A stretch of DNA of 64,000 nucleotides from an uncultured Planctomycetia bacterium (GCA_964449965.1 CAYVEO010000006.1:308-64307); one strand, 5' to 3'. Shown: positions 1,630 to 31,013, counted from the stretch's first letter. Program-made: numbers and translations. The notes: generated by a model not told the origin, from the letters alone.

Positions 1630-2408
1630 ATAACGAGATTAAATTATGGACATGGTTTGGTATAACAGGGATAATCTGTCTTGTCACACTCGCAGTCTCA
1701 CCTGCCAAGGACTATTTTAAGGAGTGGAAAAGATACCAGAAGGTTTTTTATGAAAAGGTCCAAATGGGAAATAGCCATATCGCCGTAAAACAGATAGTCG
1801 TTGATGAATTAGGAAAGGTTGACAGGTGTGTAACATGCCATCTTGGCGTGGAAGACCCAAATCTCAAAACCGAAGAGAATCCTTATAAATATCATACTAA
1901 CCATGGACGGCATCCCTTTGAAAGGTTTGGGTGCACCATCTGTCATGAAGGGCAGGGCAGGGCAACTACTGTCAGGGATGCACATGGCTATAATAAACAT
2001 TGGGAAAAACCTATGCTGCCTTTATATTATATTCAAGCCTCATGCGGCAAGTGCCATTTTGAGACCGAATTAAAAGGAGCAACCCTTTTGACAGAGGGCA
2101 GAAGATTATATAAAGAAAAGTCCTGTGACCTCTGTCACAAGATTGGAGGGATTGGAGAAAGCGTTGGACCTGAGATTACTTACGAAGGTTCCAAAACGAT
2201 AGATGATTTTAACTTTGGGAATGACATGGATATTGAACGGACCCCGTGGGCATGGCACTTTGCCCATTTAAAGAACCCGCAGATTTTTGACCCAAACTCT
2301 CAGATGCCAAATCTTGAGTTATCAGATGAAGAGGCGAAGGCGCTGACTGTCTATATACTCAGTCTTACCAAAGAAAAGATTCCTTATGAATACAGGAGAG
2401 GACTATGA
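1626..2408 (+). CDS. membrane-anchored tetraheme c-type cytochrome
   Basis: N-terminal TM helix. Four CxxCH motifs (CVTCH, CTICH, CGKCH, CDLCH). Overlaps the upstream gene by 4 nt. Confidence 0.7.
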   Translation: MNNEIKLWTWFGITGIICLVTLAVSPAKDYFKEWKRYQKVFYEKVQMGNSHIAVKQIVVDELGKVDRCVTCHLGVEDPNLKTEENPYKYHTNHGRHPFERFGCTICHEGQGRATTVRDAHGYNKHWEKPMLPLYYIQASCGKCHFETELKGATLLTEGRRLYKEKSCDLCHKIGGIGESVGPEITYEGSKTIDDFNFGNDMDIERTPWAWHFAHLKNPQIFDPNSQMPNLELSDEEAKALTVYILSLTKEKIPYEYRRGL

Positions 2409-3550
2409 TGAAAAGTTTTGTATTTAGTATGGTCTTATATTTATTATTCGCTGCAAATAGTTATGTAATTGCAGCAGAAGATGTGGATTATAAAATAGAA
2501 GAATCTAACTATACATCAAGCCTTGTCTGCGGGAAGTGCCATGAGGCGATTTATAGTAAGTGGAAGAACTCTATGCATGCACAATCCATCCTTGACCCCA
2601 TTTTTAATCTGGCTTATATGCAGGCTGTCCAGGAGTCAGGTGAAGAGGCAAAAAAATTATGCCTGAGCTGTCATGCCCCGGCTGTCAGGGCAAATAATGA
2701 CTATGAATTAAATAAGGCGATTACTAACGAAGGCATCATGTGTGATTTCTGCCATACCGTTAAAGGGGTGGATTTGAATAATCAGGAGAACCCTTACATT
2801 ATAGATGTGGGTGAGGTTAAAAGGAGCACCATAAAGGATGCAGAGTCTCCTGTCCATAAAGTGGAACATTCAGAATTACATGCGAGGTCAGAATTTTGTG
2901 CCGGCTGCCACGAATTTAATAAGGATAAGGTTACCATAATAGGGACTTATAGCGAATGGAAGGAAGGACCGTATTCAAAAGAAGGCGTTCAATGTCAGGA
3001 TTGCCACATGCCGGCAATTAAGGGTTTGATAGTAAGGTCAGACATAAAGGAGGTTACGGGTGAGATTAATTTACACGATTTACAAGGGGGCCATTCAGTA
3101 GAACAACTTCGTAAGGCAATGAGGGTCAGGATAGTAGATACGGCACGGTCCGGCGACGGGGTCACGGTCAAGGTGGAGATAACAAATATTGGTTCAGGTC
3201 ATACGGTCCCTACAGGGCTGCCATCAAGGGAATTAGTTCTACAGATGATAGTCAAAGACTCAAAGGGAAGGATTATATCACGGGATGAGAAGATATACAA
3301 GAAGGTATTGGCAGATGAGAATGGAAATGAACTAAAGAAGGACCATGAGTTTTTCTTAAAAGGCAGGACCATACTTTCAGATAACAGGATTAAACCCCGC
3401 GAGACTAAGGAAACGGTATTTTATTTTTCCTATCCGAAACGTGAGGAATTGTCTGTTGAGACAAAACTTTTCTACCGCTATGAGCCAGAGGTTATTTCAA
3501 CACAGGAGATGTTCATTGAGATGGGGGGTGATAGCAGGGTAATTAGATAA
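2405..3550 (+). CDS. secreted pentaheme c-type cytochrome
   Basis: Signal peptide. Five CxxCH motifs (CGKCH, CLSCH, CDFCH, CAGCH, CQDCH). Overlaps the upstream gene by 4 nt. Confidence 0.7.
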   Translation: MMKSFVFSMVLYLLFAANSYVIAAEDVDYKIEESNYTSSLVCGKCHEAIYSKWKNSMHAQSILDPIFNLAYMQAVQESGEEAKKLCLSCHAPAVRANNDYELNKAITNEGIMCDFCHTVKGVDLNNQENPYIIDVGEVKRSTIKDAESPVHKVEHSELHARSEFCAGCHEFNKDKVTIIGTYSEWKEGPYSKEGVQCQDCHMPAIKGLIVRSDIKEVTGEINLHDLQGGHSVEQLRKAMRVRIVDTARSGDGVTVKVEITNIGSGHTVPTGLPSRELVLQMIVKDSKGRIISRDEKIYKKVLADENGNELKKDHEFFLKGRTILSDNRIKPRETKETVFYFSYPKREELSVETKLFYRYEPEVISTQEMFIEMGGDSRVIR

Positions 3551-3603: not shown

Positions 3604-4104
3604 ATGAATAAGGTTTGGTTTGGTTTGGCTGTTGTTGGGGTAATTGGGGTATTTGTCACTCGTGGTAATGCAGAAGAGTCCCATAAGTATATAGGGGTAA
3701 AGAAGTGTAAGATGTGTCATATGCAGCAATATAAGATCTGGGAAGGGTTAAAGATGGCGAAGGCATTAGACCTGTTAAAGGCTGAGAATAATACGAGAAC
3801 CAAAAAAGATGAGACCCAGAACCCGGAATGTATCAAATGTCACGTAACAGGTTTTGGTAAAGGCGGCTATGAGATTGGTAAAGCTGACCCGGACCTTGCC
3901 AATGTCCAGTGCGAGGCATGCCATGGACCCGGCAGCGACTACGGGAAGATGGATGTTATGAAGGATAAGGAGAAATCAACCGCAACAGGACTTGTGATTC
4001 CAACTGAGGCTACCTGTAAGGAATGTCATACGCCCGAGTTTAGCCCGGACTTTGATTTTGCAAAGGCATACAAGGAGATAGACCACAAAAAGAAAACAGA
4101 ATAA
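3604..4104 (+). CDS. secreted tetraheme c-type cytochrome
   Basis: Signal peptide (LAVVGVIGVFVTRGNA). Four CxxCH motifs (CKMCH, CIKCH, CEACH, CKECH). Confidence 0.75.
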   Translation: MNKVWFGLAVVGVIGVFVTRGNAEESHKYIGVKKCKMCHMQQYKIWEGLKMAKALDLLKAENNTRTKKDETQNPECIKCHVTGFGKGGYEIGKADPDLANVQCEACHGPGSDYGKMDVMKDKEKSTATGLVIPTEATCKECHTPEFSPDFDFAKAYKEIDHKKKTE

Positions 4105-4140: not shown

Positions 4141-4196
4141 TTCGGCTACGCCTCAGAATGACAATACAATAATGTCACTTTGAGCGTAGCGAAGAG
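4141..4196. repeat. imperfect inverted repeat (REP-like hairpin) CTTCGGCTACGCCTCAGAATGACA ... TGTCACTTTGAGCGTAGCGAAG
   Basis: About 20 of 24 positions pair. Lies between the tetraheme gene and ccsB; may act as a terminator or attenuator. Confidence 0.35.
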
Positions 4197-5298
4197 TCTA
4201 ATTAAAGGAATCAATTATTTGAAAAAATCCTCAAACTGGCTTACCAATAATCCCATCTGGAAGTTTTTCTCTTCTATAAATGCAGGGATAACGCTGCTTT
4301 CTATTATTGCAATCGCCTCCTGCATAGGAACTATTATCCCGCAGGATTTAACTAAGGATGAATATTTATCTAAATATAGCCGTGAAGCATACGATATTCT
4401 AAATGCGTTTAAACTTACAACATTGTTCCATTCATGGTGGTTCATCACATTATTAGTCCTCTTGATACTGAACCTCGCGGTAGCAACCATCAATAGGTTT
4501 TCCTTTAAACTGAAATCAATCGGTTTTTTAATCACGCATTCCAGTATAATAATTATCATAATTGGTGCTATCATAGGAAATGTTAATGGAGAGAGAGGCT
4601 TCTTATGGCTCAAAGAAGGGGAAACCAAATCCACGTTCTCTATAGGGGATGTTTCCAGGAAATTGAATTTTAACCTTCGCCTGAAAGACTTTATATTAGA
4701 GCACTATAACTCTGATTCCCAGAAAATTACAGTGAGCGTAGTCAAGGAAGGGAAGAGTTTTGAATACGTATATCCGGTAGAGATAGGAAAGGAATACAAC
4801 GTTCAGGGTACGGATTATAAAATCAAGATGCTTCGTTACGTACCGGATTTCGTAATAGATATTGAGACTAAGGAGGCCGTAACCAGAACAGATGAGCCTA
4901 ATAATCCCGCCTTACAGGTTGAAATTATTTCACCTGAAGGTAACGTCTCTAACAGATGGCTTTTTGCCAGATACCCTGGTATGCATGGTGATAAGGAAAA
5001 GGATATAGAAATTGTATATCACTGGGCACAAGAGAGAATAAAGGATTTCAAGAGTGAACTGGAAGTATTAGAAGGAGATAGGCTCGTCCAATCTAAAATG
5101 ATAGAGGTAAACCATCCCTTAGAGTATAAGGGCTATGTCTTCTATCAGGCAAGTTACAATCCTCAGGATTTGACTGTTACAGGACTTCAGGTAACAAAAG
5201 ACCCCGGCGTGCCTGTGGTTTATACGGGGTTTATTATGTTAGTGGGGGGATTAGTAGTTGTGTTCTATATAAATCCATTGCTGAGAATAAAAAAATGA
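4180..5298 (+). CDS. ccsB: cytochrome c biogenesis protein ResB/Ccs1 (system II), short form
   Basis: N-terminal IWKFFSS...LLSIIAIASCIGTIIPQ helix typical of ResB. Large periplasmic domain and a C-terminal TM. Immediately upstream of ccsA. Confidence 0.65.
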   Translation: MSVAKSLIKGINYLKKSSNWLTNNPIWKFFSSINAGITLLSIIAIASCIGTIIPQDLTKDEYLSKYSREAYDILNAFKLTTLFHSWWFITLLVLLILNLAVATINRFSFKLKSIGFLITHSSIIIIIIGAIIGNVNGERGFLWLKEGETKSTFSIGDVSRKLNFNLRLKDFILEHYNSDSQKITVSVVKEGKSFEYVYPVEIGKEYNVQGTDYKIKMLRYVPDFVIDIETKEAVTRTDEPNNPALQVEIISPEGNVSNRWLFARYPGMHGDKEKDIEIVYHWAQERIKDFKSELEVLEGDRLVQSKMIEVNHPLEYKGYVFYQASYNPQDLTVTGLQVTKDPGVPVVYTGFIMLVGGLVVVFYINPLLRIKK

Positions 5299-5320: not shown

Positions 5321-6301
5321 ATGTTCATCAACCTAACGTTTGCAGGTTATTTTTTAGCACTCATAGTTTACAGTATAAGTTTATTCGTAAAGAAAAAGTT
5401 AGTATCTAACGGTGCAGTGGCATTATACATCCTTGGTTTTATTTTCAACACTATCGTTATTATAAGAAGATGGCAGGAAGGGGGACGTCCACCTTTTTCC
5501 AATATGTATGAGTCACTTCTTCTGCTCGCATGGGCAATAACATTGGTTTATCTGGTGTTTGATTTTATTTATAACCTGAAGGCGTTAGGAACATTTGCTG
5601 CATTATCTTCTTTGGTATTTCTTGGCTATACATCTCTATTAGATAGTTCTATAGAGCCGTTAGTGCCGGCCCTTCAGTCAAATTGGCTTACTATACACGT
5701 TGTAGCCCTCTTTATATCTTATGCAGCCTTTGCCGTATCGTACGTGGCAGCAGTTGTATATCTTATCAAGAGAAAAGGCATAGAGGCAGGACTGGCTATA
5801 TACTCAATGTGCCTGATGGCAGTTGGGCCAATCTTGATATTTGAACTTGCCAGAAGCGGACACTTAGGACAATGGACTCAAAACGTAGGATGGATTATAC
5901 TGTTGGGATTGATTGATGCGGCAATATCATTGATATTGTGGGCACCTCTTTATTTTATAATAAGGTTCCTGAAAATAGAAGACCATATACCAGAAGAGGG
6001 TCTATTGGACAATGCCGTATATAAATCTGTCGCCTTTGGTTTTCCATTCCTTGCCTTTGGAATTATTGCGGGTGCAGTATGGGCAAATAAGGCATGGGGA
6101 AGATACTGGGGATGGGACCCAAAGGAGACATGGTCGTTTATCACGCTCCTCGTCTATGCCATATACCTGCACCTCAGGTATGTAAGGGGATGGAAGGGAA
6201 GGAAGGCAAATTGGTTCAGCATCATAGGATTCCTGGTGGTGATAATTACGTTCATAGGGGTGAATTATATTATTTCAGGGTTACACAGTTATGCGGAATG
6301 A
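5321..6301 (+). CDS. ccsA: cytochrome c-type biogenesis protein CcsA (heme handling/lyase subunit)
   Basis: 326 aa polytopic protein. The WANKAWGRYWGWDPKETWSFITLLVYAIYLHLR segment is the Trp-rich WWD-type signature of CcsA/ResC. Confidence 0.85.
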   Translation: MFINLTFAGYFLALIVYSISLFVKKKLVSNGAVALYILGFIFNTIVIIRRWQEGGRPPFSNMYESLLLLAWAITLVYLVFDFIYNLKALGTFAALSSLVFLGYTSLLDSSIEPLVPALQSNWLTIHVVALFISYAAFAVSYVAAVVYLIKRKGIEAGLAIYSMCLMAVGPILIFELARSGHLGQWTQNVGWIILLGLIDAAISLILWAPLYFIIRFLKIEDHIPEEGLLDNAVYKSVAFGFPFLAFGIIAGAVWANKAWGRYWGWDPKETWSFITLLVYAIYLHLRYVRGWKGRKANWFSIIGFLVVIITFIGVNYIISGLHSYAE

Positions 6302-6326
6302 TAAAGTAAGCATATTTGCACAAAAG

Positions 6327-6752
6327 ATGCCTCTTCAAGACAAATATGCCTACTTTTTACATATAAATGTGATGTTCGTTGTCCTTTCTCTTTTAAATTT
6401 AACTGTCGCGGGCTGCGAAAAGGGTCCAGGGTCTATAAAACTTATCATCCGTCACATAGAAAACAAGGATTTTGCAGAGGAGCATGTTGTGAAATTCGGG
6501 GAAGATTTTTTTATCTCAGATACAGACTATTCTGCTAAGGTGATTAAATTCATTCCGGACTTCGTGATGAATGAAAAAACAAAAAAGGTGTCTTCTCGTT
6601 CTAAGAAACCGAATAACCCTGCGGTCATGGTGAGGGTGTATTATAAGGGCAAGTTTTTGTATGACTCATGGGTATTGCAAAAGGCTGATACTATCCACTA
6701 TGTCCGAAAACCAGGTTTCTATTTTGAGTTTATTGGATTGGAGACTAAATGA
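6327..6752 (+). CDS. lipoprotein carrying a ResB-like periplasmic segment (ORF-track start 6291; start 6327 MPLQDKYAYF preferred)
   Basis: Lipobox LTVAGC. The segment KFIPDFVMNEKTKKVSSRSKKPNNPAVMVRVY parallels RYVPDFVIDIETKEAVTRTDEPNNPALQVEII of the ResB at 4180. Confidence 0.45.
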   Translation: MPLQDKYAYFLHINVMFVVLSLLNLTVAGCEKGPGSIKLIIRHIENKDFAEEHVVKFGEDFFISDTDYSAKVIKFIPDFVMNEKTKKVSSRSKKPNNPAVMVRVYYKGKFLYDSWVLQKADTIHYVRKPGFYFEFIGLETK

Positions 6753-9700
6753 GTTGCAGAAAGACGTTACTAATAACGATTGCTTTTTCTCTTATTTTTG
6801 CAATATCTTCTGACGATGGATTTGCTGCCAGGCGTGCAAAAAAGAAAGAATGTCTGGAATGTCATGCCGAGAAAAAACCGCAGCTTAAGGAAAAGTTTGT
6901 TCACAAACCTTTCTCAAAGAAGGAATGCCTTAAGTGTCATGAAACCCATGGGTTTACCAATGCCCTTAAATTAAAGAAATGGGATGCAGAACTTTGTTTT
7001 GACTGCCATTCTGACAAAAAAGGAGAGTTTACCAAATCTCACGTCCACCCGGCAATTACCAAAGGCAGGTGCTGGGACTGCCATGACCCGCATGCCTCTT
7101 CCAATCCTAAATTGCTTGTCAAGACAGACAGTGACCTGTGCTACGCTTGCCATAGTAAAGAAAAGACGGAATTTGCAAAGGAGAATATTCACCCTCTGGT
7201 GAAGGACGGCAAATGTTTGACCTGCCATATGCCTCATTCTTCAGAGAATGAATCACAATTGAGGAATACCGGCAATGGAAATTGCACCTCATGTCATGAG
7301 ACAGCAAAGGAAGAATTTGTCTCAGCCCACGCAGGGTATGATGCGGGAAAAATCAACTGCACAGACTGCCACAACCCGCATTCATCCAGTCATAAGAAAC
7401 TTTTTAAGGAAAGTGTGCATGTGCCTGTATCAGAGAAGAAGTGTGATACCTGCCATGATGCTGTTAGTTCCGAAGAGCCTCTTCGCTTAAAGATTCCCGG
7501 AAACCGGTTATGCACTATATGCCATTTAGACAAAGAGAAGGATTTAGGGAAAAAGCACGTTCATGCGCCTTTTTCATCAGGTCCGTGTTTAGACTGCCAT
7601 ACGCCGCATGCCTCTGGTAATAAAGATTTGCTTATTAAAAAAGAAAAAGACGTATGTCTATCCTGCCACGATACAGAAAAATCCCAGATGAAGTTGGCAC
7701 ATACCCATACGCCTTTCAGGGACGGGGAGTGCAGTTCCTGTCATAATCCGCATGCAAGTAATGAAGAAAAACTTCTTTCCGATTCTGCGGATAAATTATG
7801 TTTCTCATGCCATAAGGCAGAAGAAGAAAGGTTAAAAAGTTCTCATACCCATAAGCCTTTCAAAGAAGGGGAGTGTCTTTCATGTCATAACCCTCATGCC
7901 TCAGAGAATAATTATCAGTTGATAAAGGTTGGAAAGGAACTATGTCTAAAGTGCCATACGGTAACAGAAGAGAAAAAGAAAAAATATACACATGACCCGT
8001 TTCAGATAGGCGATTGCAGCAGCTGCCATGACAGTCATGCGAGTGACTTTGATGGTCAGTTAAAGAAGGCAGATGGTGAAGTATGTTACACATGCCATAA
8101 AAATGAAATGGAGGAGCTATCAAAGAAACACCCTCATACACCTGCAAAAGAAGGTAAATGTCTGGGCTGCCATAAGCCGCATTCATCAGACGAAAGAAAT
8201 CTTCTAACTACTTCTCCTGATAACCTATGCTATACCTGTCACAGTGCCTTAGTCCAAAAATTTACCAAGAAGCACATCCATAAGCCGGTTCAGGAAAAAG
8301 ATTGCCTGAAATGCCATAACCCGCATTCAGGGGATAATAAGTTCCAGGTAAAGAAGGAGGGTGCTGACCTTTGCTTTTCATGCCATGCAGGAATAGAATC
8401 ACAATTCAAGAAAGAATCTGTCCATTTTCCTGTCAAACAGGGAAGGTGCAGTACCTGTCATAACTCTCATGCTTCAGAAGAGGCGCTCTTGCTGAATAAT
8501 CCTTTATCCAAATTATGCTCTACATGTCACGTCCAGGATAAAAAGTTTCAGGATGCACATTTAAACTTTGCGGTAGAAGCAGCAGATTGTTTAGGATGCC
8601 ATAATCCCCATGCCTCAGATGCTAAGAAGGGCCTTCCAAATGAGTATATCCATCCGCCTTATGAAAAGAAAGACTGTAAGACCTGCCATGAGGAAGAAAA
8701 TGGATTGGCTAAGACGGCGTTAAAAAAGGATATTGCCCGGGTATGCTTAAGTTGTCATACCAGCGAGAAAGAGATATTTACGAAAGACGTTGTCCACACG
8801 CCATTCAAGGAAGGCAAGTGCCCCACATGTCATAATCCACATACTTCCAAAAACAAATCCCTGATGAAGGATACAGGGAGCCAATTGTGTTTTAACTGCC
8901 ATAAAGATAAACTCAAGGAGTTTTCAAAGGGATATGCACATACGCCTGTCCAAGAGGGTAAATGCACAGGCTGTCACCAGGCTCATGGCTCTGGTGATAA
9001 AGCCTTGTTGACAAATACAGGGGCTAAATTATGTTATACCTGCCATAAAGACTTTGAAAACCGCCTTAATAAACCTGTAGTTCATAATCCCGTGAAGAAA
9101 GGTGAATGCCTTACGTGCCACAGCCCTCACGTCTCAGATAATCCTGGCGGTATCAGGAAACCTGAAACAGAATTATGCCTGTCCTGCCATGATAGTTCGT
9201 CAGGTCCATTCAAATCTGCACATGCTACCTATCCGGTTGAAAAAGCCAAGTGCGTCACATGTCATGACCCCCATTCCTCTGACTCTAAAGGACTATTTCG
9301 TTCCCATCTCCATGCGCCTGTGGGCGAGAAGAAATGTAATTTATGCCATGCACCGGCTCAAGGAGTAAAGCCGTTCAGTCTGGTAAAGCCTGAGGATGAA
9401 CTTTGCTATAGTTGCCATGGTGATAAGGTCCAGGCATTTAAAAAGGGACACGTCCATGCACCGGTAGCGTCCGGAGGATGCACGACATGCCATGCCCCGC
9501 ATGCCTCAGATTATAAATTCCTGCTGGAAGATACCGGTGGTATGCAGTGTTTTAAATGCCATACAGAGGCAAAGAAAAAATTTGACGCCAAATACGTCCA
9601 TACCCCTGTAGCAAAGGGTGAATGCACATCCTGCCATAACCCGCACAGCACTGATTTTCCAAATCTTACAATGAAAGAGAGTATAGAACTATGTAACTCA

Positions 9701-9877
9701 TGCCATCCTACCCAGGGAACATTTGTCCATCCTGTGGGTGAAAAATATATAGACCCGAGGACAGGTTCTATGCTCACATGCCTCTCATGCCACAACCCGC
9801 ACGGGACAGAGAATGAATATGTCCTGTATTACAAGAAAGATAGGGAGTTGTGTATACAATGTCACAAGGTAGAGTAA
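6749..9877 (+). CDS. giant multiheme c-type cytochrome (about 42 CxxCH motifs in 1042 aa)
   Basis: Signal peptide. I counted 42 CxxCH motifs, arranged in a repeating unit of about 25 aa (K..C..CH.PH.S....LL) reminiscent of polymerised c7-type domains. Confidence 0.85.
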   Translation: MSCRKTLLITIAFSLIFAISSDDGFAARRAKKKECLECHAEKKPQLKEKFVHKPFSKKECLKCHETHGFTNALKLKKWDAELCFDCHSDKKGEFTKSHVHPAITKGRCWDCHDPHASSNPKLLVKTDSDLCYACHSKEKTEFAKENIHPLVKDGKCLTCHMPHSSENESQLRNTGNGNCTSCHETAKEEFVSAHAGYDAGKINCTDCHNPHSSSHKKLFKESVHVPVSEKKCDTCHDAVSSEEPLRLKIPGNRLCTICHLDKEKDLGKKHVHAPFSSGPCLDCHTPHASGNKDLLIKKEKDVCLSCHDTEKSQMKLAHTHTPFRDGECSSCHNPHASNEEKLLSDSADKLCFSCHKAEEERLKSSHTHKPFKEGECLSCHNPHASENNYQLIKVGKELCLKCHTVTEEKKKKYTHDPFQIGDCSSCHDSHASDFDGQLKKADGEVCYTCHKNEMEELSKKHPHTPAKEGKCLGCHKPHSSDERNLLTTSPDNLCYTCHSALVQKFTKKHIHKPVQEKDCLKCHNPHSGDNKFQVKKEGADLCFSCHAGIESQFKKESVHFPVKQGRCSTCHNSHASEEALLLNNPLSKLCSTCHVQDKKFQDAHLNFAVEAADCLGCHNPHASDAKKGLPNEYIHPPYEKKDCKTCHEEENGLAKTALKKDIARVCLSCHTSEKEIFTKDVVHTPFKEGKCPTCHNPHTSKNKSLMKDTGSQLCFNCHKDKLKEFSKGYAHTPVQEGKCTGCHQAHGSGDKALLTNTGAKLCYTCHKDFENRLNKPVVHNPVKKGECLTCHSPHVSDNPGGIRKPETELCLSCHDSSSGPFKSAHATYPVEKAKCVTCHDPHSSDSKGLFRSHLHAPVGEKKCNLCHAPAQGVKPFSLVKPEDELCYSCHGDKVQAFKKGHVHAPVASGGCTTCHAPHASDYKFLLEDTGGMQCFKCHTEAKKKFDAKYVHTPVAKGECTSCHNPHSTDFPNLTMKESIELCNSCHPTQGTFVHPVGEKYIDPRTGSMLTCLSCHNPHGTENEYVLYYKKDRELCIQCHKVE

Positions 9878-11328
9878 TAAAAGGCGGGTTAAAACTAAAA
9901 TTAATATTGTCTGTATGTATTACTATTGCCTTCCTGATAGGTTTGCTCACATATCTTATAGTCCACATCCAGACTGATGCCATGCTGAAAAAAACCAGGA
10001 ATTCCAATCGTATGATGAGCCAGATGTTCTATCAGCATCTGGAACTTGCGATGCTCACAGGCAAAAGAGAAGAGATCCAAAGGTTATTGCAGGATGTTGG
10101 CAAATATGAAGGTATCAGAGCCATCAAGATATTTGATGAAACAGGCAGGATAGTATTTTGTTCAAATCCCCAGTTTATCGGACAGAAGATAGACTTTCAT
10201 CACATGGATATATTTAAAGAAGAAAATATACATAGGACACTTGATTTTACGGAAAGTCATGATGAGTTCCACCTCGTTACACCTATCAGGAACAAAAGGG
10301 AATGTCAGAGATGCCATGGTGTTGAAAAAGAATTCATGGGGGCATTGGACCTGGATATATCATTGGCATCTATGATAAAAGATGTTGCCACGAACAGAAA
10401 CGTTATGATTTCATTTGCAATACTGACAATACTTGTTGTATCATTAGTAATATCCCTCTTTACTATGAAATTCGTCAGCCGTCCCATAACGCATCTCATA
10501 GGCACAATGCAGGAGGTAGAAAAAGGTAATTTAAACAAACGGGTAAATCTGGCAACCAACGATGAATTGGGCATGTTAGGTGAAAGTTTTAATTCAATGA
10601 TATCTAAGTTAGATGAGGCAAAAAAAGAACTGCAAGTCCTGCACGAGAGCGAACTCGCGAGGGCAGACAGATTAGCTTCTATAGGAGAACTTGCCTCTGG
10701 TATAGCCCATGAGATAAAGAATCCATTAGCAGGAATAGGTGCTGCCATTCAAGTTCTATCTGAAGGTGTCGCAAAAGATGACCCCCAAAAAGAGGTGCTG
10801 GATGAGATAATAAAGCAGATAGAAAGACTGAACAAGACGATAAAGGATTTCTTGGCTTATGCCAGACCGACTGAGCCCCGTATGGCAATATACGACATAA
10901 CTGATGTTGCGAAAAAGGCGGCCTTCTTGATAAGGAAACAGGCAGAAAACCAGAAGGTTGCAATAGAAGAGAATTATAAATACAATATCCCGGGATTACT
11001 GATAGACCCGGAACAGGTCCAGCAGGTTATGGTAAATATCATGCTCAACGCGGTTCAGGCGATGCCTGAGGGGGGCAGGTTAATAATATCAGCGAAGGCT
11101 GAACCTAAATTCGCAGAACTCTCCATCACCGATACAGGCAAAGGTATTCCAAAAGATAATCTTGCTAAAATCTTTACACCATTTTATACTACAAAACATC
11201 AAGGGACCGGATTAGGGCTCTCTATCAGTAACAGGATTATAGAGAAGCATAATGGGAGTATAAGGGTGGAGAGTGAGGTAGGGAAAGGCACTACATTCAG
11301 GATTAGGCTGCCAATAAAAGATGTCTAA
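9850..11328 (+). CDS. sensor histidine kinase with periplasmic heme-c (CxxCH) sensor domain
   Basis: Two TM helices flank a periplasmic domain of about 165 aa containing CQRCH. HAMP region, HisKA H-box (ELASGIAHEIKNPL) and HATPase_c motifs (DTGKGI, GTGLGL). Confidence 0.8.
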   Translation: MYTMSQGRVIKGGLKLKLILSVCITIAFLIGLLTYLIVHIQTDAMLKKTRNSNRMMSQMFYQHLELAMLTGKREEIQRLLQDVGKYEGIRAIKIFDETGRIVFCSNPQFIGQKIDFHHMDIFKEENIHRTLDFTESHDEFHLVTPIRNKRECQRCHGVEKEFMGALDLDISLASMIKDVATNRNVMISFAILTILVVSLVISLFTMKFVSRPITHLIGTMQEVEKGNLNKRVNLATNDELGMLGESFNSMISKLDEAKKELQVLHESELARADRLASIGELASGIAHEIKNPLAGIGAAIQVLSEGVAKDDPQKEVLDEIIKQIERLNKTIKDFLAYARPTEPRMAIYDITDVAKKAAFLIRKQAENQKVAIEENYKYNIPGLLIDPEQVQQVMVNIMLNAVQAMPEGGRLIISAKAEPKFAELSITDTGKGIPKDNLAKIFTPFYTTKHQGTGLGLSISNRIIEKHNGSIRVESEVGKGTTFRIRLPIKDV

Positions 11329-12706
11329 ATTTAAAATCCTTGTCGTAGATGATGAAAAACTGGTAAGGTGGTCATTAGAACATGCCCTTACCATGGAGGG
11401 GTATGCCGTATCCACTGCTGAGACAGGTGAGGAGGCAATCCATAAGATTAAGGGTGAGTCTCCTGACCTCATCCTGCTTGATGTAAAACTTCCTGGTGGA
11501 ATTGACGGTATCGCAGTATTGGCAAAACTCAGGGAATTTGATAAAGAGGCGATAGCGATTATGCTCACAGCCCATGATACAGCAGAGGCTGCAGTCCGTG
11601 CATTGAAATTAGGGGCGTATGAATATATATGCAAACCTTTTAATCTTGATGAATTGAAGATTATTATCAAAAATGCCTTTGAAACGGTAAGCTTACGGCG
11701 GCAGGTGGCGATTATCCGCTCAAGACAGGAAGCAGAGTTTGGATTTGACAACATTATTGGAAAGAGCCCGGCAATGCATGAGGTATTCACTATGATTAAA
11801 AAGGTATCAGAGACTGATACTACGACAATCCTCCTCTTGGGTGAAAGCGGAACCGGGAAGGACCTGGTTGCAAGGACGATTCATTATTCTGGCTCAAGAA
11901 AAGACAGCCCTTTTCTTGAGGTAAATTGTGCCGCACTTCCGGAGAACCTTCTGGAGAGTGAGTTGTTAGGATACGAAAAAGGAGCCTTCACCGATGCCAA
12001 GTCACAGAAGAAGGGCATGTTTGAATTAGCAGACGGAGGTTCTATATTTCTTGACGAGATAGGCGATATGAAGTTATCAATGCAGGTAAAACTCTTGAAG
12101 GTGATTGAGGATAAAAGATTCAAAAGGATTGGTGGGACGAGCGATGTAGAGGTTGACGTCCGGATTATCGCTGCCAGTAACAGGGACTTAGCAAAGGCTG
12201 TTAAAGAAGAGAAGTTCAGGGAAGACCTTTACTACAGGTTGAATATAGTGCCCATTACCATTCCGCCGCTGCGGGAACGAAAAGAGGATATCCCTCTATT
12301 AATAAAATTCTTCATTGATAAATTTAATAGTGAGTTCAAAAAGGATGTTAAAGGTATATCAAAAAAAGCTGAGGAACTACTTCTCAACTACGCATGGCCC
12401 GGAAACGTGAGAGAGATAAAGAACGTCATAGAACGGGCAATGATTTTAGAGAACATTGGAATTATATCAGACAGTCATCTGCCTATAGAGATAGGGGGTT
12501 ACGAATCAGTTCCTGTTAAAGAAATAAAGGGTTTGTTTAAAATACCTCTTCAGGGAATTGATATGGAAGAGGTTGAAAAAGAATTAGTCCGGCAGGCATT
12601 GGACATGGCGGTCGGGAATCAGACCAGGGCAGCAAAACTTCTCAACATTAAAAGAGATGCGCTCAGATACAAGATGCAAAAATTCGGATTTCTTGCAGAA
12701 AAGTAG
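11321..12706 (+). CDS. sigma-54-dependent response regulator (NtrC family)
   Basis: REC domain (ILVVDDE...LLDVKLPG). AAA+ sigma-54 activator domain (GESGTGKD, GAFTDA, ESELFGYEKGAFT). C-terminal Fis-type HTH. Confidence 0.9.
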   Translation: MSKFKILVVDDEKLVRWSLEHALTMEGYAVSTAETGEEAIHKIKGESPDLILLDVKLPGGIDGIAVLAKLREFDKEAIAIMLTAHDTAEAAVRALKLGAYEYICKPFNLDELKIIIKNAFETVSLRRQVAIIRSRQEAEFGFDNIIGKSPAMHEVFTMIKKVSETDTTTILLLGESGTGKDLVARTIHYSGSRKDSPFLEVNCAALPENLLESELLGYEKGAFTDAKSQKKGMFELADGGSIFLDEIGDMKLSMQVKLLKVIEDKRFKRIGGTSDVEVDVRIIAASNRDLAKAVKEEKFREDLYYRLNIVPITIPPLRERKEDIPLLIKFFIDKFNSEFKKDVKGISKKAEELLLNYAWPGNVREIKNVIERAMILENIGIISDSHLPIEIGGYESVPVKEIKGLFKIPLQGIDMEEVEKELVRQALDMAVGNQTRAAKLLNIKRDALRYKMQKFGFLAEK

Positions 12707-12794
12707 GAGGCATATTTACCTCTCATCGGACGTTTGTTTGCCCCTGCGTGTCAAACTTCACTCATTTTTTGCGCTCGCTCGTCCGCCAAAAAGA

Positions 12795-12810
12795 TGGCGG
12801 ACACCGTGCC
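12795..12810 (+). promoter_or_regulatory. candidate sigma-54 promoter TGGCGGACACCGTGCC (GG/GC 12 nt apart)
   Basis: -24 TGGC and -12 TGC at the consensus spacing. The predicted start (about 12821) lies 4 nt before the ATG at 12825. Overlaps a GTCCGCC/GGCGGAC hairpin that may terminate the upstream regulator gene. Confidence 0.35.
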
Positions 12811-12824
12811 CGCTCGCACAAAAG

Positions 12825-13751
12825 ATGCCTCTTCAAGGCAAATATGCCTCCTACTTAATTATAATATTACTGTACGCTTTCCCTGGTTTTTGTGAAGAGG
12901 TTAACCCAGCCAAATTCATATTCAGTATTGAGAGAGAGGCAAGCGAGGCATTAGAGAAACCAAAAGAAATATTTATAGACGTAGAGCATAGAGAAATCTA
13001 CGTGATAGACAATAAGGGAAAGGTAAGGCTCCAGGTATTTAATCTGGAAGGCTCATTTCTATACGACTTAGATATAGGGACAAAATTTAGCCTTATATCC
13101 GGTATTGGGGTATCAAAATCCGGCAGGATTTACATATCAGTCCCCGCTGCAAAAGAGGTGACAATCCTTGATTTTCGCGGGAAATTTATCAATAAACTGG
13201 ATTTCTCCGATATTCCTGAAACAAAAGAACTTCTCCCCGGGAAACTAACCCTTGATGCGGATGGAAACCTGTATTGCATTGACCACAAGAATCAACAGGT
13301 TCTGGTATTTGATGATAGGGATGGTTTCAAATTTAAATTCGGGTCAAAGGGAAATGATGACGGTAAATTTCAAAATATTTCAGACATAACGGTTTCTCAC
13401 AGCAATATATTTGTCTTAGATGCTTATCTGGGACGCATCTCAGTCTTTGATAAGGAAGGGAAGTTCCTGTTAAAATTCGGGCAAAAGGGCAGCGGTGTAG
13501 GCAAGATGAGCCAGCCATCAGGAATTGCCGTAGATAAGGACGGGAATATTTTTATAGCAGATAGTTTCAGGCACAATGTTCTTGTATTTAATAAGGATTA
13601 TAACCTGTGGTTTGAATTTGGTGGATTAGGAACAGGAACTAACTGGTTTATAAATCCTTCTGAGATAGCCATTGACGAAACGGGACGTATCTATGTAGTT
13701 GACTGGGGCAATGGCCGTATACAGGTATTTGAAATTGAGAAACCAAAATAA
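12825..13751 (+). CDS. secreted NHL-repeat beta-propeller protein (ORF-track start 12657 rejected)
   Basis: Signal peptide YLIIILLYAFPGFC followed by six repeats of the Y.[VA]D..N.R[IV]..F type. It is the gene immediately downstream of the sigma-54 regulator. Confidence 0.75.
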   Translation: MPLQGKYASYLIIILLYAFPGFCEEVNPAKFIFSIEREASEALEKPKEIFIDVEHREIYVIDNKGKVRLQVFNLEGSFLYDLDIGTKFSLISGIGVSKSGRIYISVPAAKEVTILDFRGKFINKLDFSDIPETKELLPGKLTLDADGNLYCIDHKNQQVLVFDDRDGFKFKFGSKGNDDGKFQNISDITVSHSNIFVLDAYLGRISVFDKEGKFLLKFGQKGSGVGKMSQPSGIAVDKDGNIFIADSFRHNVLVFNKDYNLWFEFGGLGTGTNWFINPSEIAIDETGRIYVVDWGNGRIQVFEIEKPK

Positions 13752-13817: not shown

Positions 13818-14120
13818 ATGAAAAAACTTCCTGGGTTCCTAAAAAAATATTTTTGGGATGTAGAATTTAAAAAAATAGACCCGAATAAAACTAAGATATA
13901 CGTTCTGAGGCGAATTCTTGATTATGGAGATGAGAAAGCAGTTACCTGGATGTACAAGAATTTTAAAAAATCAGAGATAAAAAATGCCTTGTCTAATTTT
14001 CGTGGCTATTCTCAAAAAAGTGCTAATTACTGGGCTCTTATATTAGATATACCAAAGGAAGAGGTATTATGTTTGAAGAAACGCTCATTAAGGGAGCGAA
14101 GGATATTCTGGCCTTATTAG
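13818..14120 (+). CDS. small hypothetical protein, possible cognate partner (antitoxin-like) of the downstream nucleotidyltransferase
   Basis: 100 aa basic protein overlapping the start of the next gene. No recognisable motif. Confidence 0.3.
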   Translation: MKKLPGFLKKYFWDVEFKKIDPNKTKIYVLRRILDYGDEKAVTWMYKNFKKSEIKNALSNFRGYSQKSANYWALILDIPKEEVLCLKKRSLRERRIFWPY

Positions 14121-14692
14121 GTCGTTCAAATATCTTAAAAGATGCATATTTGGCAGGTGGTACGGCAGCAGCCCTCCAATTAGGACACCGTATTTCTGTA
14201 GATTTTGACTTTTTTACTTCTAAGGAATTTGTGCCCAGAGTTTTTTCTACTGAACTATCAAAATTGGGTTCCTTTGACGAGGAACAGGCAGACAAAGGGA
14301 CCGTCTTAGGGGAATTTAAGGGGATAAAATTCAGCCTTTTTATCTATAAATACCCCTTAATTTTTCCTCCTAAAAAATATTTGTCATTGAATATAGCCGA
14401 TATTAGAGACATTGCCGCAATGAAAATAGACGCTATAGCAACTCGTGGGGCAAAGAGGGATTTTATTGATTCGTATTTTATATGTAAAGATGGTTACGGA
14501 TTAGATGAAATATTGGGGTTTTACAATAAAAAATACGGGAAATTGGTTTCTAATCTTATTCATCTTCAGAAAAGTTTAGTATATTTTAATGATGCTGAAC
14601 CAGAGATAATGCCAAAGATGTTAAAGAAAGTGAAGTGGGAAGAAATAAAAAAATATTTTGAGAACGAAGTAAAGAGATTGACAAGAGAATAA
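14069..14692 (+). CDS. nucleotidyltransferase of the AbiEii/DUF1814 toxin-like family
   Basis: LAGGTAAALQLGHRISVDFDFF ... DIRDIAAMKIDAIATRGAKRDFIDSYFI matches the minimal nucleotidyltransferase fold of AbiEii-type type IV toxins. Confidence 0.55.
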   Translation: MFEETLIKGAKDILALLGRSNILKDAYLAGGTAAALQLGHRISVDFDFFTSKEFVPRVFSTELSKLGSFDEEQADKGTVLGEFKGIKFSLFIYKYPLIFPPKKYLSLNIADIRDIAAMKIDAIATRGAKRDFIDSYFICKDGYGLDEILGFYNKKYGKLVSNLIHLQKSLVYFNDAEPEIMPKMLKKVKWEEIKKYFENEVKRLTRE

Positions 14693-15318: not shown

Positions 15319-15376
15319 AATGTGTAAGACTAAAGATATAAGGATTAAAAAAATAAGAGAGAAAGGAGGGATAGAG

Positions 15377-16393
15377 ATGAAGGGGATAGCAAGATATATT
15401 CTGATAGTGATGGGTGTAATAGCACTGGCAATGATTCTACCAATGGATAGTGTCTATGCAGTTCATAAGGGGGCAGGCGGATTGGACTGTTCAGGATGCC
15501 ATACTATGCACAATAGCCAGCAGGGTTCAACAATGGGTGGCGGTCCAACAGGGAGACTTTTAAAGGCAGCCGATACAGAAGGGCTATGTCTCTCGTGTCA
15601 TGATACTGCAGGCTCTCAATATACCACATATCAGGCGACTGTTCCGGCAGTGAAAGGAACCCCGTCTGGTACACCTGCGGCAGGAAATTTCACGGATTTA
15701 GACGGGACGAATGATGCCGCAGGGCAGACAGCCAAGGGTAAAGGGCATAACTTAGGTGAGGGGGCAGCTACATTAACTCCTCCGGGTGGAGCATCAATGA
15801 CTGGCTTTACCTGCACAAATTGCCACGACCCGCATGGTGTATCTACCGACAGTACTTCAGTTTCTGCATTCAGAAATCTGAGATTTAATCCAACTGGCTC
15901 AGGTGGTGGTGGACCATCAGTAATCAATGCAGGTCCTGCTGAAGGGACATTGGCAAGTGCAGTATATCCTGAGACGACTTACTATTATGGAAAGGTAACT
16001 GGTGGAGCCGCACTGAGTAATATATCCCAGTGGTGCGGGACATGCCATGATTCATTCTATGGCGATTCCAATACTGGTACAGCATCGCCTTATACACGTC
16101 ATGCGACCGGGAATCCTACAACGGCTCATAATTTGAGCGCTGTTGACTATACAAATTACTCTGGTGTAACAGAGGCAAGCAGGTTCCCTGCTGAAGATAG
16201 TGCTACAAGTGCAACTGCCAATAGTAGTAATACTACCAATAAGGCGGCAGGAAATGAGTCTGCTGATGGAGTTTTATGCTTATCATGCCATAAGGCACAT
16301 GCTACGGCTAATACTGATAGCTTGAGGTGGAGTTATGCAGCTGCGGCACAGTCCTCACCAGGCAGCGCTTGCCAGCAGTGTCATAACAAGTAA
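15377..16393 (+). CDS. hexaheme c-type cytochrome, Gly/Thr/Ser-rich (start at 15377 with a GGAGG RBS preferred over 15320)
   Basis: Signal anchor. Six CxxCH motifs (CSGCH, CLSCH, CTNCH, CGTCH, CLSCH, CQQCH). Low-complexity G/T/S-rich linkers. Confidence 0.75.
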   Translation: MKGIARYILIVMGVIALAMILPMDSVYAVHKGAGGLDCSGCHTMHNSQQGSTMGGGPTGRLLKAADTEGLCLSCHDTAGSQYTTYQATVPAVKGTPSGTPAAGNFTDLDGTNDAAGQTAKGKGHNLGEGAATLTPPGGASMTGFTCTNCHDPHGVSTDSTSVSAFRNLRFNPTGSGGGGPSVINAGPAEGTLASAVYPETTYYYGKVTGGAALSNISQWCGTCHDSFYGDSNTGTASPYTRHATGNPTTAHNLSAVDYTNYSGVTEASRFPAEDSATSATANSSNTTNKAAGNESADGVLCLSCHKAHATANTDSLRWSYAAAAQSSPGSACQQCHNK

Positions 16394-16522: not shown

Positions 16523-17431
16523 ATGATGCTGCCTATAGTTATATTGTTTATTCTGACCAGGCAATTAGTTGCAGTTGCAGATGATACGCCTAAATTAAAA
16601 TATCTATATTCTATAAGTGAGTTAACTAAAAGCGAGGGCATATCAGAACCCCAGTCAATATTTATTGATAAACTGCATGATGAGATATATATAAGTGATA
16701 CAGGGAATAACCGTATTCTTGTATTTAACAAGGATGGATTACTAATTCAGAAGATTGATGGAGCAAAAAATATAATCTCACCTCTGGGGATAGCTGTTGA
16801 CGTTAAATTAGGTAACATCTACGTTAGCGAAAGAGAAAGCGGAAAATTAAAAGTCTTAAATTTTAGGGGTGAAGGAATCTTAGATATAGATCTTTCTAAA
16901 TTAGGCAGAAGTAGTATATCAATTGGCAGGCTCACACTTGATAAGTCGGGGAATTTATACGCTATTGATGGTATGAATCAGGAAATTCTTTCTTTTGACA
17001 TGTCAGGAAATTTCAGATTTAGATTTGGCGGCATCGGAACTAAAGAAGGACAATTTGAGATGTTACAGGATATAGGGATAGATGAAGACGGCAGGGTCTA
17101 TGCAGTCAGTTCCTTGGGGACTTCTGTTCAGGTATTTGACCGTGACGGCAGATACCTATCTGGTTTTGGTAAACATGGGGCTGATGAAGCAAAACTATCA
17201 TTTCCAGCAGGTATAGGGATAGACAGAAATAATAGACTTTGGCTTACTGACAGTTTCCAGCATTCTTTAAAGGTATTTGACCATAACGGGAAGTTTCTCT
17301 TTAAATGGGGAAATATGGGGAGCGGGAATGGTGACTTTTTATTCCCGGTAGACATTGATTTTGATAGTAAGGGGAATATCTATGTCCTGGAAAAAGGGAA
17401 TAGTCGTGTTCAAGTATTTGAGGAACAATGA
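16523..17431 (+). CDS. secreted NHL-repeat beta-propeller protein
   Basis: Signal peptide. Six NHL-type repeats (YISDTGNNRILVFN, YVSERESGKLKVLNF, LYAIDGMNQEILSFD, VYAVSSLGTSVQVFD, LWLTDSFQHSLKVFD, IYVLEKGNSRVQVFE). Confidence 0.8.
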   Translation: MMLPIVILFILTRQLVAVADDTPKLKYLYSISELTKSEGISEPQSIFIDKLHDEIYISDTGNNRILVFNKDGLLIQKIDGAKNIISPLGIAVDVKLGNIYVSERESGKLKVLNFRGEGILDIDLSKLGRSSISIGRLTLDKSGNLYAIDGMNQEILSFDMSGNFRFRFGGIGTKEGQFEMLQDIGIDEDGRVYAVSSLGTSVQVFDRDGRYLSGFGKHGADEAKLSFPAGIGIDRNNRLWLTDSFQHSLKVFDHNGKFLFKWGNMGSGNGDFLFPVDIDFDSKGNIYVLEKGNSRVQVFEEQ

Positions 17432-18356
17432 AATTCTTCCTGCAATTCTTGCAATCATTGTGTGGTCTGTTGCTGTCCCTGTTTCAGCAGGAGACTATCA
17501 CACTGTAGGCACTTCAAGTCTTATATGTTCGGACTGCCACACTATTCACTACACCCAGTTAGGGACAAGATATGAGGCAGGTGGACCATGGCCAAGGTTA
17601 CTGTTATATTCTGCTATAACAGGATTATGTCTATCCTGCCATGATGGGCAGACATCCATCCCTGATGTCCTGCAGGCAGCGGGTGCAGGCCAGCCTGCTA
17701 ACAGGGCTGCAGGTGCATTTCAGGCATTGTCCGGAAACTCTACGCCTAACGGTCATAATTTAGGTGTGGCAGGGACGCCTCCCGGAGGGACAGGCTCAAT
17801 GACTCTTACATGCACATCCTGTCATGACCCGCATGGTACTACTAATTACAGGAATCTTAAAACAAGCGTTGGCAGTGGTGGGGCAGCAATTACGTATTCT
17901 GCAGGTGGTTCTAATGACCTTGCTAAATGGGTGTGGGAGATTGCAACGACGCCGATGGCAACACACTATGATGTGAGCAATATAAGGTATAATGAACCCG
18001 TTACAACTGACTCCACATTCAGCGGGTGGTGTGGAGGCTGCCATGGGGATTTTCATGGACTCGTAAACACAGGCGACCCTGAACCATGGACCAGACACCC
18101 TACGGCAAAGGCAAATGTCTCTGCAACTACAAAAACCGATTATACTAACTGGAGCGGGATTACAGGCTCACGTGTTCCTGTAATGAGTGCAAGCGGGACT
18201 GTCCCTGCAACTGATAACACACCCTCGTGTCCATCGTGCCATAAGGCACATGGGTCAGGAAACAAATACGGACTTATATTTGATAATCCGTCAACTGCGT
18301 CATTAGAGGATGGGACGAGCATATTACAGACATGCCAGCAGTGTCATAATCAATAA
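17355..18356 (+). CDS. hexaheme c-type cytochrome, paralog of the 15377 gene
   Basis: Six CxxCH motifs (CSDCH, CLSCH, CTSCH, CGGCH, CPSCH, CQQCH). Same architecture and G/T/S-rich linkers as 15377-16393. The true start may be M10 at 17382. Confidence 0.7.
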   Translation: MILIVRGISMSWKKGIVVFKYLRNNEILPAILAIIVWSVAVPVSAGDYHTVGTSSLICSDCHTIHYTQLGTRYEAGGPWPRLLLYSAITGLCLSCHDGQTSIPDVLQAAGAGQPANRAAGAFQALSGNSTPNGHNLGVAGTPPGGTGSMTLTCTSCHDPHGTTNYRNLKTSVGSGGAAITYSAGGSNDLAKWVWEIATTPMATHYDVSNIRYNEPVTTDSTFSGWCGGCHGDFHGLVNTGDPEPWTRHPTAKANVSATTKTDYTNWSGITGSRVPVMSASGTVPATDNTPSCPSCHKAHGSGNKYGLIFDNPSTASLEDGTSILQTCQQCHNQ

Positions 18357-24794: not shown

Positions 24795-24796
24795 AG

Positions 24797-27893: not shown

Positions 27894-27906
27894 TAATGGA
27901 GGAATT

Positions 27907-29784: not shown

Positions 29785-29785
29785 G

Positions 29786-30529: not shown

Positions 30530-30560
30530 TTACACAAATTAAAAATGTTTAGATGTCTTA

Positions 30561-30860: not shown

Positions 30861-30996
30861 CCCGTCATTCTCACGCAATTCCGTGAGATATTGTTATGAA
30901 GTCATTGCGAGGAACGTAGTGACGAAGCAATCTAATATTTATGTAACACATTTATAAACAACATGTTATATAAATCAGACATATCTGAATTTAACT

Positions 30997-31013
30997 TTGG
31001 CATGAAAATTGCT
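30997..31013 (+). promoter_or_regulatory. sigma-54 promoter TTGGCATGAAAATTGCT
   Basis: TGGCAT-N5-TTGCT with canonical GG/GC spacing. The predicted start (about 31024) lies 5 nt before the ATG at 31029. The ATGs at 30963 and 31002 fall inside or upstream of the promoter and are therefore rejected as starts. Confidence 0.55.

Follow-up and report, generated by a model that had tools for sequence, protein, structure and literature searches.

We analyzed a 64,000-nucleotide (nt) stretch of DNA from an uncultured Planctomycetia bacterium (GCA_964449965.1 CAYVEO010000006.1:308-64307; hereafter, the window), in which an open reading frame (ORF) at 6749-9877 on the plus strand encodes a cytochrome with 42 heme-binding motifs. 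Sequence alignment shows that this protein is a collinear fusion of a 26-heme and a 16-heme protein, the genes of which are adjacent in 18 of 21 other loci. We identify it, with good confidence, as a fused counterpart of OscI and OscJ of the Geobacter osc (omcS companion) cluster. A first-pass annotation of the sequence had noticed the cytochrome, but missed this 26-heme plus 16-heme identity and, with it, the tie to the companion clusters of OmcS nanowires. The heme number and the order of the heme blocks are invariant at ~35% sequence identity, whether the two parts are fused or split.

The ORF has an ATG start and encodes 1042 amino acids (aa), beginning with a Sec-type signal peptide (aa 1-26; nt 6749-6826, plus strand), for which cleavage after GFA was predicted from the sequence by eye. 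No lipobox was seen in the protein sequence. A regular-expression recount returned exactly 42 CxxCH motifs, the number given in the first-pass annotation, and no CxxxCH, CxxxxCH, or CxxCK variants. The protein contains 85 Cys, 92 His, and 8 Met, and has one heme site per 24.8 aa, in keeping with the very high density of about 25 residues per heme reported at first. The calculated mass of the mature protein is ~113 kDa for the apo form and ~139 kDa with 42 hemes. Eight mature residues precede heme 1 and three follow the last CxxCH, and the heme-binding units fill nearly the entire polypeptide.

The repeat had been described as a unit of about 25 aa with a periodicity of 75-80 bp in the DNA. However, the spacing of the CxxCH motifs alternates between 25 and 23 aa, so that one repeat is in fact a di-heme unit of 48 aa. 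Autocorrelation of the gene gave periodicities of 144 nt (z = 6.9) and 288 nt (z = 5.0), whereas lags of 69 and 75 nt reached only +1 standard deviation. Two types of site could be distinguished: type A, in which a distal His lies 10-13 residues beyond the CxxCH, and type B, CxxCHxxH. Their order along the chain is ABABABABA/ABABABABABABABABA/ABABABABA/ABABABA, which defines four blocks of 9, 17, 9, and 7 hemes. At the block boundaries, an extra type-A heme follows a unit bearing an additional conserved "HxP" histidine.

The OscI-like half comprises hemes 1-26 (aa 35-647; nt 6851-8689), with block 1 (hemes 1-9) at nt 6851-7456 and block 2 (hemes 10-26) at nt 7511-8689; its pattern is ABABABABA followed by ABABABABABABABABA. 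The OscJ-like half, defined by homology to the 16-heme proteins, comprises hemes 27-42 (aa 666-1042; nt 8744-9874), with block 3 (hemes 27-35) at nt 8744-9349 and block 4 (hemes 36-42) at nt 9404-9865. All of these lie on the plus strand. The junction between hemes 26 and 27 spans 23 residues and resembles the other two internal block boundaries.

A scan of one genome per GTDB species returned 80 loci, and ORFs were called in the related loci. A 26-heme gene is present in 21 loci, and in 18 of these it is immediately followed by a gene for a 16-heme protein, which has a signal peptide of its own and shows the pattern ABABABABA+ABABABA or a close variant of it. In alignments with the window protein, the 26-heme proteins cover aa ~4-650 (32-38% identity) and the 16-heme proteins aa ~643-1042 (33-42% identity). 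In Geobacter sp. AOG1 (L017), the 26-heme protein maps to aa 4-647 (38% identity, E 4e-161) and the 16-heme protein to aa 643-1040 (38% identity, E 2e-97). The heme-type order of the window protein thus joins the pattern of the 26-heme class (9+17) to that of the 16-heme class (9+7), and the total of 42 is kept in both the one-gene and the two-gene (26 + 16) arrangement. The tails after the last motif are similar in all forms (range 1-12 residues): the median is 5 for both the 26-heme and the 42-heme class and 4.5 for the 16-heme class. The lineages represented include Geobacter sp. AOG1, other Desulfobacterota, Nitrospirota, Acidobacteriota, Myxococcota, Ignavibacteria, Zixibacteria, Eisenbacteria, Krumholzibacteriia, and Chloroflexota. 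A neighbor-joining tree of the 26-heme portion was nearly star-like; the fused forms fell mostly together, with one exception (L019).

The gene order around the L017 pair is an NHL-like gene, a 514-aa beta-propeller, a 775-aa protein, a 203-aa LpoB/CsgG/GNA1162-like lipoprotein, a 370-aa protein, a 590-aa SurA-like PPIase (peptidyl-prolyl isomerase), the 26-heme protein, the 16-heme protein, and an NHL propeller, with an OmcS-like hexaheme cytochrome nearby. This order and the domains match the published osc block GSU2500-GSU2493 (Shen et al. 2025, Cell Chem Biol 32:239, as cited in PMC12977616 and PMC13194489). GSU2495 has been described as a ~70-kDa, 26-heme, "peptide-minimized" cytochrome (Starwalt-Lee et al., PMC12977616), and the gene names oscC, oscI, and oscJ correspond to GSU2501, GSU2495, and GSU2494, respectively (PMC13194489). 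Since the window protein is collinear with the L017 pair and L017 matches the published osc block, the window protein is very probably a fused OscI-OscJ-type cytochrome, the comparison having been made through the L017 proteins rather than the GSU2495 and GSU2494 sequences. To judge from these counterparts, OscI and OscJ of G. sulfurreducens share the doubled-CXXCH architecture and the same 9+17 and 9+7 blocks; they differ in being two polypeptides where the window has one, and the identity to the counterparts is only 33-42%. The likeness extends to the locus, as the window also contains an NHL propeller, OmcS-like hexahemes, and OscF-like lipoproteins. In contrast, a two-component system is inserted ahead of the NHL gene in the window, and a ResB-fragment lipoprotein lies directly upstream of the cytochrome gene, where the osc cluster has the OscH PPIase.

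This last difference recurs across the loci. A ~155-aa ResB-fragment protein directly adjoins the cytochrome gene upstream in 7 of the 11 fused loci and in none of the 21 split loci, whereas 18 of the 21 split loci have a SurA-like (OscH-like) PPIase within two genes of the pair and 19 have it somewhere in the locus, as compared with 2 of the 11 fused loci. Two alternative dedicated chaperones may lie behind the difference. Surveys had already described "wire" cytochromes that are rich in hemes and built from repeats, and the OscI/OscJ family has already been named. As far as we could determine, what is new here is that a single-chain 42-heme form is widespread and equal to OscI plus OscJ, that heme number and block order are invariant, and that the PPIase is replaced by a ResB-fragment lipoprotein in the fused forms.

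The conservation of the 42-heme form was examined further by database searches. A word-indexed protein search found 996 proteins at E <= 1e-10; even the best were only 32-38% identical, and nearly all of these were 1014-1100 aa long. Among the 120 homologues listed, 75 carry exactly 42 motifs and 26 carry 26, with a few having 38, 35, or other numbers. The A/B pattern was identical in 65 homologues, and that of 20 free-standing 26-heme proteins agrees with the window pattern over precisely its first 26 positions. At E <= 1e-30, an exhaustive HMMER search of 1.84 billion representatives yielded 729 clusters, of which none exceeds 50% identity to the 42-heme protein. It recovered both size classes, many proteins of 410-435 aa matching only aa ~655-1040. 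Longer relatives of the doubled-CXXCH repeat family were also seen, namely P0132 (3592 aa), P0213 (3274 aa), P0208 (2281 aa), and P0049 (1629 aa, 52 CxxCH).

In an alignment of 76 sequences, all 42 CxxCH motifs are invariant and in register, and 42 further His columns are conserved at >= 84%. The additional histidines provide one distal ligand per heme, as all-bis-His ligation would require, and the alignment fits a protein in which all 42 hemes are bis-His ligated.

Mis-assembly of tandem repeats could inflate or deflate the heme number, and the point deserves attention, as the public metagenome-assembled genome (MAG) contig JACPSO010000170.1, 99.5% identical to the window, ends 699 nt into the 42-heme gene (window ~7447), indicating that short-read assemblers do break here. 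An independent Logan assembly (SRR4343428) likewise breaks at 8224-8252. Nevertheless, its two contigs are 100% identical to window 5892-8252 and 8224-11700, overlap by 29 nt, and jointly span the whole gene. The repeats themselves are diverged: 19 cleanly delimited units have a mean identity of 36% in protein and 55% in DNA, with a DNA maximum of 65%, and to judge from these values the copies are old. Tandem Repeats Finder, run on 6000-10500, found no array inside the gene, and a recent DNA-level repeat was rejected on this basis. Furthermore, the A/B pattern is the same as that of 65 independent homologues, a match that repeat collapse or expansion would destroy. An artefact was therefore rejected on repeat divergence, homologue pattern, and the independent contigs, and we consider it exceedingly unlikely. 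As a separate matter, the breaks inside the gene in the two short-read assemblies (8224-8252 in SRR4343428 and ~7447 in JACPSO010000170.1) suggest that giant doubled-CXXCH cytochromes are probably under-counted or truncated in MAG catalogues. No database record was identical to the 42-heme protein, the GTG-start form of the neighboring kinase, or the response regulator; the ATG-start form of the kinase was matched.

Profile searches assign the repeat to the doubled-CXXCH families. PF09699 (Paired_CXXCH_1) matched 22 stretches of the protein (E 1.6e-244, 789.9 bits; cut-off 20.6), and TIGR01905 scored 754.7 bits (cut-off 25.2). The c7, c3, and NrfB-like Pfam families scored far below PF09699. 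The first-pass annotation had likened the protein to polymerised c7-type domains, a description that we rejected: PF14522 reached 134.9 bits against 789.9 for PF09699, the spacing is di-heme, there is no His/Met pattern, and neither a c7 nor a GSU1996 fold match was obtained. The GSU1996-type dodecaheme is likewise a multi-domain periplasmic heme "nanowire" made from a repeated small heme module, but its module is the triheme c7, whereas that of the 42-heme protein is the di-heme doubled CXXCH. Among the NCBIfam models, the GSU2203 decaheme model matched the protein piecewise, and the DmsE/MtrA model TIGR03508 scored 459.6 bits (cut-off 192.2) from nine partial stretches.

An AlphaFold2 model built from the 76-sequence alignment, which contains no hemes, had a mean pLDDT (predicted local distance difference test score) of 84.9 and a pTM (predicted template modeling score) of 0.61. 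MtrA of the Mtr complex (6r2q chain A) was the best match by three methods (Foldseek E 3.5e-6; sequence E 8.7e-16). In the model, the heme-binding chain thus resembles MtrA in its local fold. MtrA and DmsE carry 10 hemes in about 300-350 aa, as compared with 42 in 1042 aa here, and are encoded beside an MtrB/DmsF-type porin, whereas no porin adjoins the 42-heme gene.

The description of the protein as being at the extreme of known cytochromes holds for density, as ~25 aa per heme is below the ~33 quoted for MtrA (PMC5566968), but not for heme count, since surveys have reported up to 75 motifs in Desulfuromonadia, including "periplasmic wire" clusters of unknown function (PMC11492766), and up to 116 in peat metagenomes (bioRxiv 10.64898/2026.05.27.727921). 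The periplasmic and extracellular PCC3 cytochromes of Fe(II) oxidisers, with a median heme number of 21 and 34 and a maximum of 63, have been proposed to be periplasm-spanning wires (He et al. 2017, PMC5566968). They are similar to the 42-heme protein in being repeat-rich and of low sequence complexity, with very many hemes. PCC3 clusters are defined by a porin, an extracellular cytochrome, and a five-transmembrane di-heme-b protein; compared by cluster content, none of these flank 6749-9877.

The MtrA resemblance raises the question of whether the 42-heme protein could be a trans-outer-membrane or extracellular wire, that is, an elongated MtrA- or PCC3-type cytochrome, porin-threaded or secreted, that contacts minerals or partner cells. 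The fold, the DmsE/MtrA family score (459 bits), and the precedent of 21- to 63-heme repeat-rich cytochromes in PCC3 clusters that are proposed as wires (PMC5566968) all speak for it, and the window does encode two porin-like paralogues (30963-32342 and 42923-44233). However, both of these are distant from the 42-heme gene, at 21 and 33 kb on its downstream side, each with its own cytochrome partners of 9 to 14 hemes. No beta-barrel gene adjoins the 42-heme gene in the window, none is a conserved neighbor in related loci, and the protein has neither a lipobox nor an extracellular-type domain. We regard an outer-membrane or extracellular location as quite improbable.

As the best explanation of the whole, to which we give about an even chance, we propose that the fused OscI-OscJ cytochrome acts in the periplasm as a heme wire of fixed length for a nanowire module of the OmcS type. 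The protein is Sec-exported, non-lipidated, MtrA-like, and apparently all-bis-His, and would be located in the periplasm. It would form a long rod of tightly packed hemes, ~30-38 nm if straight, when scaled by analogy from MtrA (~80-100 Å per 10 hemes; PMC5566968 and general knowledge). Electrons would enter from an inner-membrane quinol oxidoreductase, for which the upstream cytochrome b, petD-like, and multiheme genes are candidates, and would leave to the cell-envelope base of OmcS-like cytochrome filaments that are exported via a PelC/CsgG-like, OscEFG-type channel. The OscK-like NHL propeller and the ResB-fragment lipoprotein might be docking, chaperoning, or anchoring partners, and the adjacent CcsBA would load the 42 hemes. 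We infer localization, rod length, electron direction, and partners, and hold this conduit mechanism at slightly less than even.

In Geobacter, the capacitance of periplasmic cytochrome pools is an established idea, and the same features could be read as those of an electron store (one of the roles suggested in the first-pass annotation), a soluble periplasmic reservoir buffering up to 42 electrons when external acceptors are lacking rather than a directional conduit. A very high density of all-bis-His hemes would suit such a reservoir, as would a heme-c redox sensor kinase encoded next door. A store, however, needs neither an exact heme number nor a fixed order of four blocks, yet both are kept across phyla at ~35% identity, which points to a structural length constraint and argues against bulk electron storage. 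The local fold is that of the linear MtrA wire, and the conserved partners (NHL propeller, chaperone-like proteins, and OmcS-like genes) suggest an assembled machine. We therefore consider a capacitor improbable.

How OmcS filaments fold, are secreted, and take their shape has been linked to the osc cluster, and the roles proposed are OscH in folding, OscEFG in secretion, and OscD in morphology (PMC13194489). By analogy with this role, the 42-heme protein could serve assembly or maturation, as a template, primer, or redox-poising partner for the polymerization of OmcS-like subunits during secretion. We judge this, too, to have little likelihood: the published assignments cover OscD, OscEFG, and OscH but not OscI/J (PMC13194489), the sequence holds nothing besides heme sites to suggest chaperone activity, and a template would not obviously require 42 ligated hemes. 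In the osc literature, as it is cited in PMC12977616 and PMC13194489, no role is assigned to OscI or OscJ. Our literature search for 42-heme cytochromes returned only irrelevant papers, and that for oscI/oscJ/oscK returned PMC13194489 as relevant.

Returning to the periplasmic wire, the single-chain fusion is "Rosetta-stone" evidence that Geobacter OscI and OscJ act end to end as a 42-heme chain. In a more specific and rather speculative version, which we consider unlikely but worth stating, OscI-OscJ, fused or split, would be a molecular ruler, a ~30-38 nm hard wire spanning the periplasm from an inner-membrane quinol oxidoreductase to the base of an OmcS-type filament in a PelC/CsgG-like ring. 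If so, nature would have supplied, in the fused gene, the proof of a single chain made up of both Geobacter proteins. The envelope anchoring and electrical coupling of cytochrome nanowires have been stated to be unresolved (PMC12307469). A single 42-heme chain of invariant count and block order, MtrA-like and bare at both ends, is a candidate for the link between inner membrane and filament.

Several observations weigh against the wire proposal. PpcA-E, the small trihemes of G. sulfurreducens, reduce OmcS directly in vitro (PMC10954620). In the highly electroactive strain KN400, oscJ is frameshifted (PMC13194489), which implies that OscIJ is not generally essential for extracellular electron transfer. 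Searching the whole window by tblastn with L017 queries gave no match to OscD-, OscE-, or OscH-like proteins at E <= 1e-3; the osc-like set is thus incomplete or divergent. Moreover, no porin gene adjoins the 42-heme gene.

Other gene clusters also place multiheme cytochromes beside NHL propellers, as here, namely the uet cluster of Tenderiales, which in addition has a PPIase and ccsAB, and DFE_0448-0451/DFE_0461-0465 of Desulfovibrio ferrophilus (bioRxiv 10.1101/2022.05.06.490989; PMC5815863; PMC9769857). Their cytochromes have 11-14 hemes and architectures unlike that of the 42-heme protein. When the cytochromes of D. ferrophilus were deleted, no phenotype in Fe(III) oxide reduction resulted (PMC9769857).

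The genes between 194 and 13751 all lie on the plus strand, with ends that overlap or nearly abut. The first five, assigned with Pfam and NCBIfam, encode a cytochrome b (194-913), a petD-like subunit (913-1629), a 4-heme cytochrome c (1626-2408), a 5-heme ExtKL-like cytochrome (2405-3550), and a 4-heme c554-like cytochrome (3604-4104). As a group, these genes are a candidate for a quinol:cytochrome c module of the inner membrane, which may act as the electron donor.

A dedicated CcsBA pair beside the cytochrome gene had been proposed, and the family searches substantiated it: a ResB/CcsB-like protein of system II maturation (4180-5298; PF05140, E 1.2e-49) is followed by a CcsA-type heme lyase (5321-6301; PF01578, E 8.7e-53; TIGR03144, 276 bits). 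The additional ResB-fragment lipoprotein was likewise supported. It comprises 153 aa (6291-6752, plus strand; likely real start 6327 or 6369), with the lipobox LTVAG/C (the slash marking the cleavage site), and shows 30% identity over 80 aa (E 5e-15) to aa 190-269 of the window ResB, in its periplasmic part. No Pfam family matched the fragment, and a PDB sequence search with it gave only noise. It is 99% identical to HYY56_04330 of the MAG GCA_016193245.1, labelled Candidatus Omnitrophica bacterium, a label that depends on binning.

Downstream of the 42-heme gene, a sensor histidine kinase (9850/9859-11328) carries a CQRCH motif at residue 152 in a periplasmic sCache/Mcp40H-20-type domain, which agrees with the heme-c sensor kinase named in the first-pass annotation. 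A sigma-54-dependent response regulator (11321-12706; Pfam/NCBIfam) follows, and the two-component system (9850-12706) thus sits between the 42-heme gene and its NHL partner, an OscK-like beta-propeller (12657-13751; PF01436, E 2e-20; likely real start 12825). The latter was matched in tblastn by the OscK-like protein of Geobacter sp. AOG1. NHL genes are present in 59-65 of 83 related loci, including 20 of 21 split and 8 of 11 fused loci. All genes from the ResB/CcsB-like protein to the NHL propeller are on the plus strand.

A 34-nt element, GCACAAAAGATGCCTCTTCAAGRCAAATATGCCT, occurs twice, at 6318-6351 (plus strand) and at window position 12816-12849. Both copies match exactly save for the degenerate R, the sole position at which they differ (A in one and G in the other), and none would be expected by chance. 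They cover the probable start and the first eight codons (MPLQ[D/G]KYA) of the ResB-fragment and NHL genes. In its 5' part, the element bears a loose likeness to the -24/-12 element of sigma-54 promoters (TGCAC-N6-TGC), and one of the genes between the copies encodes a sigma-54 activator. A scan for sigma-70 promoters gave 40 sites against 38.6 expected from shuffles, that is, no excess. Terminator-like sites were commoner than in shuffles (27 vs 11.5), with none on the plus strand at either end of the 42-heme gene.

Two OmcS-like hexahemes are encoded further downstream on the plus strand (15320-16393 and 17355-18356; Pfam and tblastn). One of them matched OmcS in the PDB (6ef8_A) with E 7.4e-9 over nearly its full length (aligned residues 4-347), and both hexahemes keep the N-terminal CxxCHT(M/I)H with the OmcS inter-subunit ligand His16. 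A second NHL propeller (16523-17431, plus strand; Pfam) lies between them, and an 8-heme cytochrome is also encoded downstream of them. Beyond these follow an 865-aa NHL protein (24662-27259; Pfam) and two PelC/LpoB/CsgG-like, OscF-like lipoproteins on the plus strand (27306-27893 and 27871-28713), identified by tblastn, PDB, and weak Pfam matches (LpoB and CsgG). With the OscF- and OscG-like proteins of Geobacter sp. AOG1 as queries, tblastn E values ranged from 1e-12 to 4e-28, and Zixibacteria counterparts reached 4e-35; the PDB match was PelC (9h80_C, E 2.4e-5). These lipoproteins are candidate parts of an outer-membrane secretion ring.

The remaining observations concern the rest of the window. 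Fourteen ORFs in the 64 kb have at least two CxxCH motifs, with 4, 5, 4, 42, 6, 6, 8, 4, 9, 14, 13, 11, 12, and 3 hemes. From its gene content, including the OmcS-like genes and two porin-cytochrome clusters, the window carries a set of putative extracellular-electron-transfer genes that is unusually dense for a genome attributed, through the 99% match of its ResB fragment to GCA_016193245.1, to Omnitrophota. At 20011-21605, downstream of the OmcS-like and 8-heme genes, there is another, shorter ResB-like/CcsA pair (274 and 257 aa), so that the region has two maturation pairs and a free-standing ResB fragment. Between the OscK-like NHL gene and the next cytochrome block, a homologue of AbiEii-type nucleotidyltransferase toxins (14069-14692; E 2.8e-10) and a small ORF (13818-14120) may be an inserted toxin-antitoxin pair.

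The first porin-cytochrome-type cluster (29299-36293) encodes a 4-heme cytochrome (29299-29784), a 9-heme doubled-CXXCH cytochrome (29786-30529), the porin-like protein at 30963-32342, a 14-heme cytochrome (32355-33380), and a 937-aa 13-heme protein with a CarboxypepD_reg domain (33480-36293). The second is a DmsEFAB-like module (42923-49718), which comprises the other porin-like paralogue (42923-44233, ending in YNF), a 12-heme (44178-45050) and a 3-heme cytochrome (45060-45467), a molybdopterin oxidoreductase with a Tat signal (45431-48421), a 4Fe-4S subunit (48438-49001), and a NarJ/DmsD-type chaperone (49065-49718). With this module, the cell may respire through a molybdoenzyme that is extracellular or linked to the outer membrane. 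Immediately past the molybdoenzyme genes, a Moco (molybdenum cofactor) riboswitch (50792-50915; 68.5 bits) extends over the GTG annotated as the start codon of moaA (50827-51942), which is followed by a MOT1-type molybdate transporter (51882-53117).

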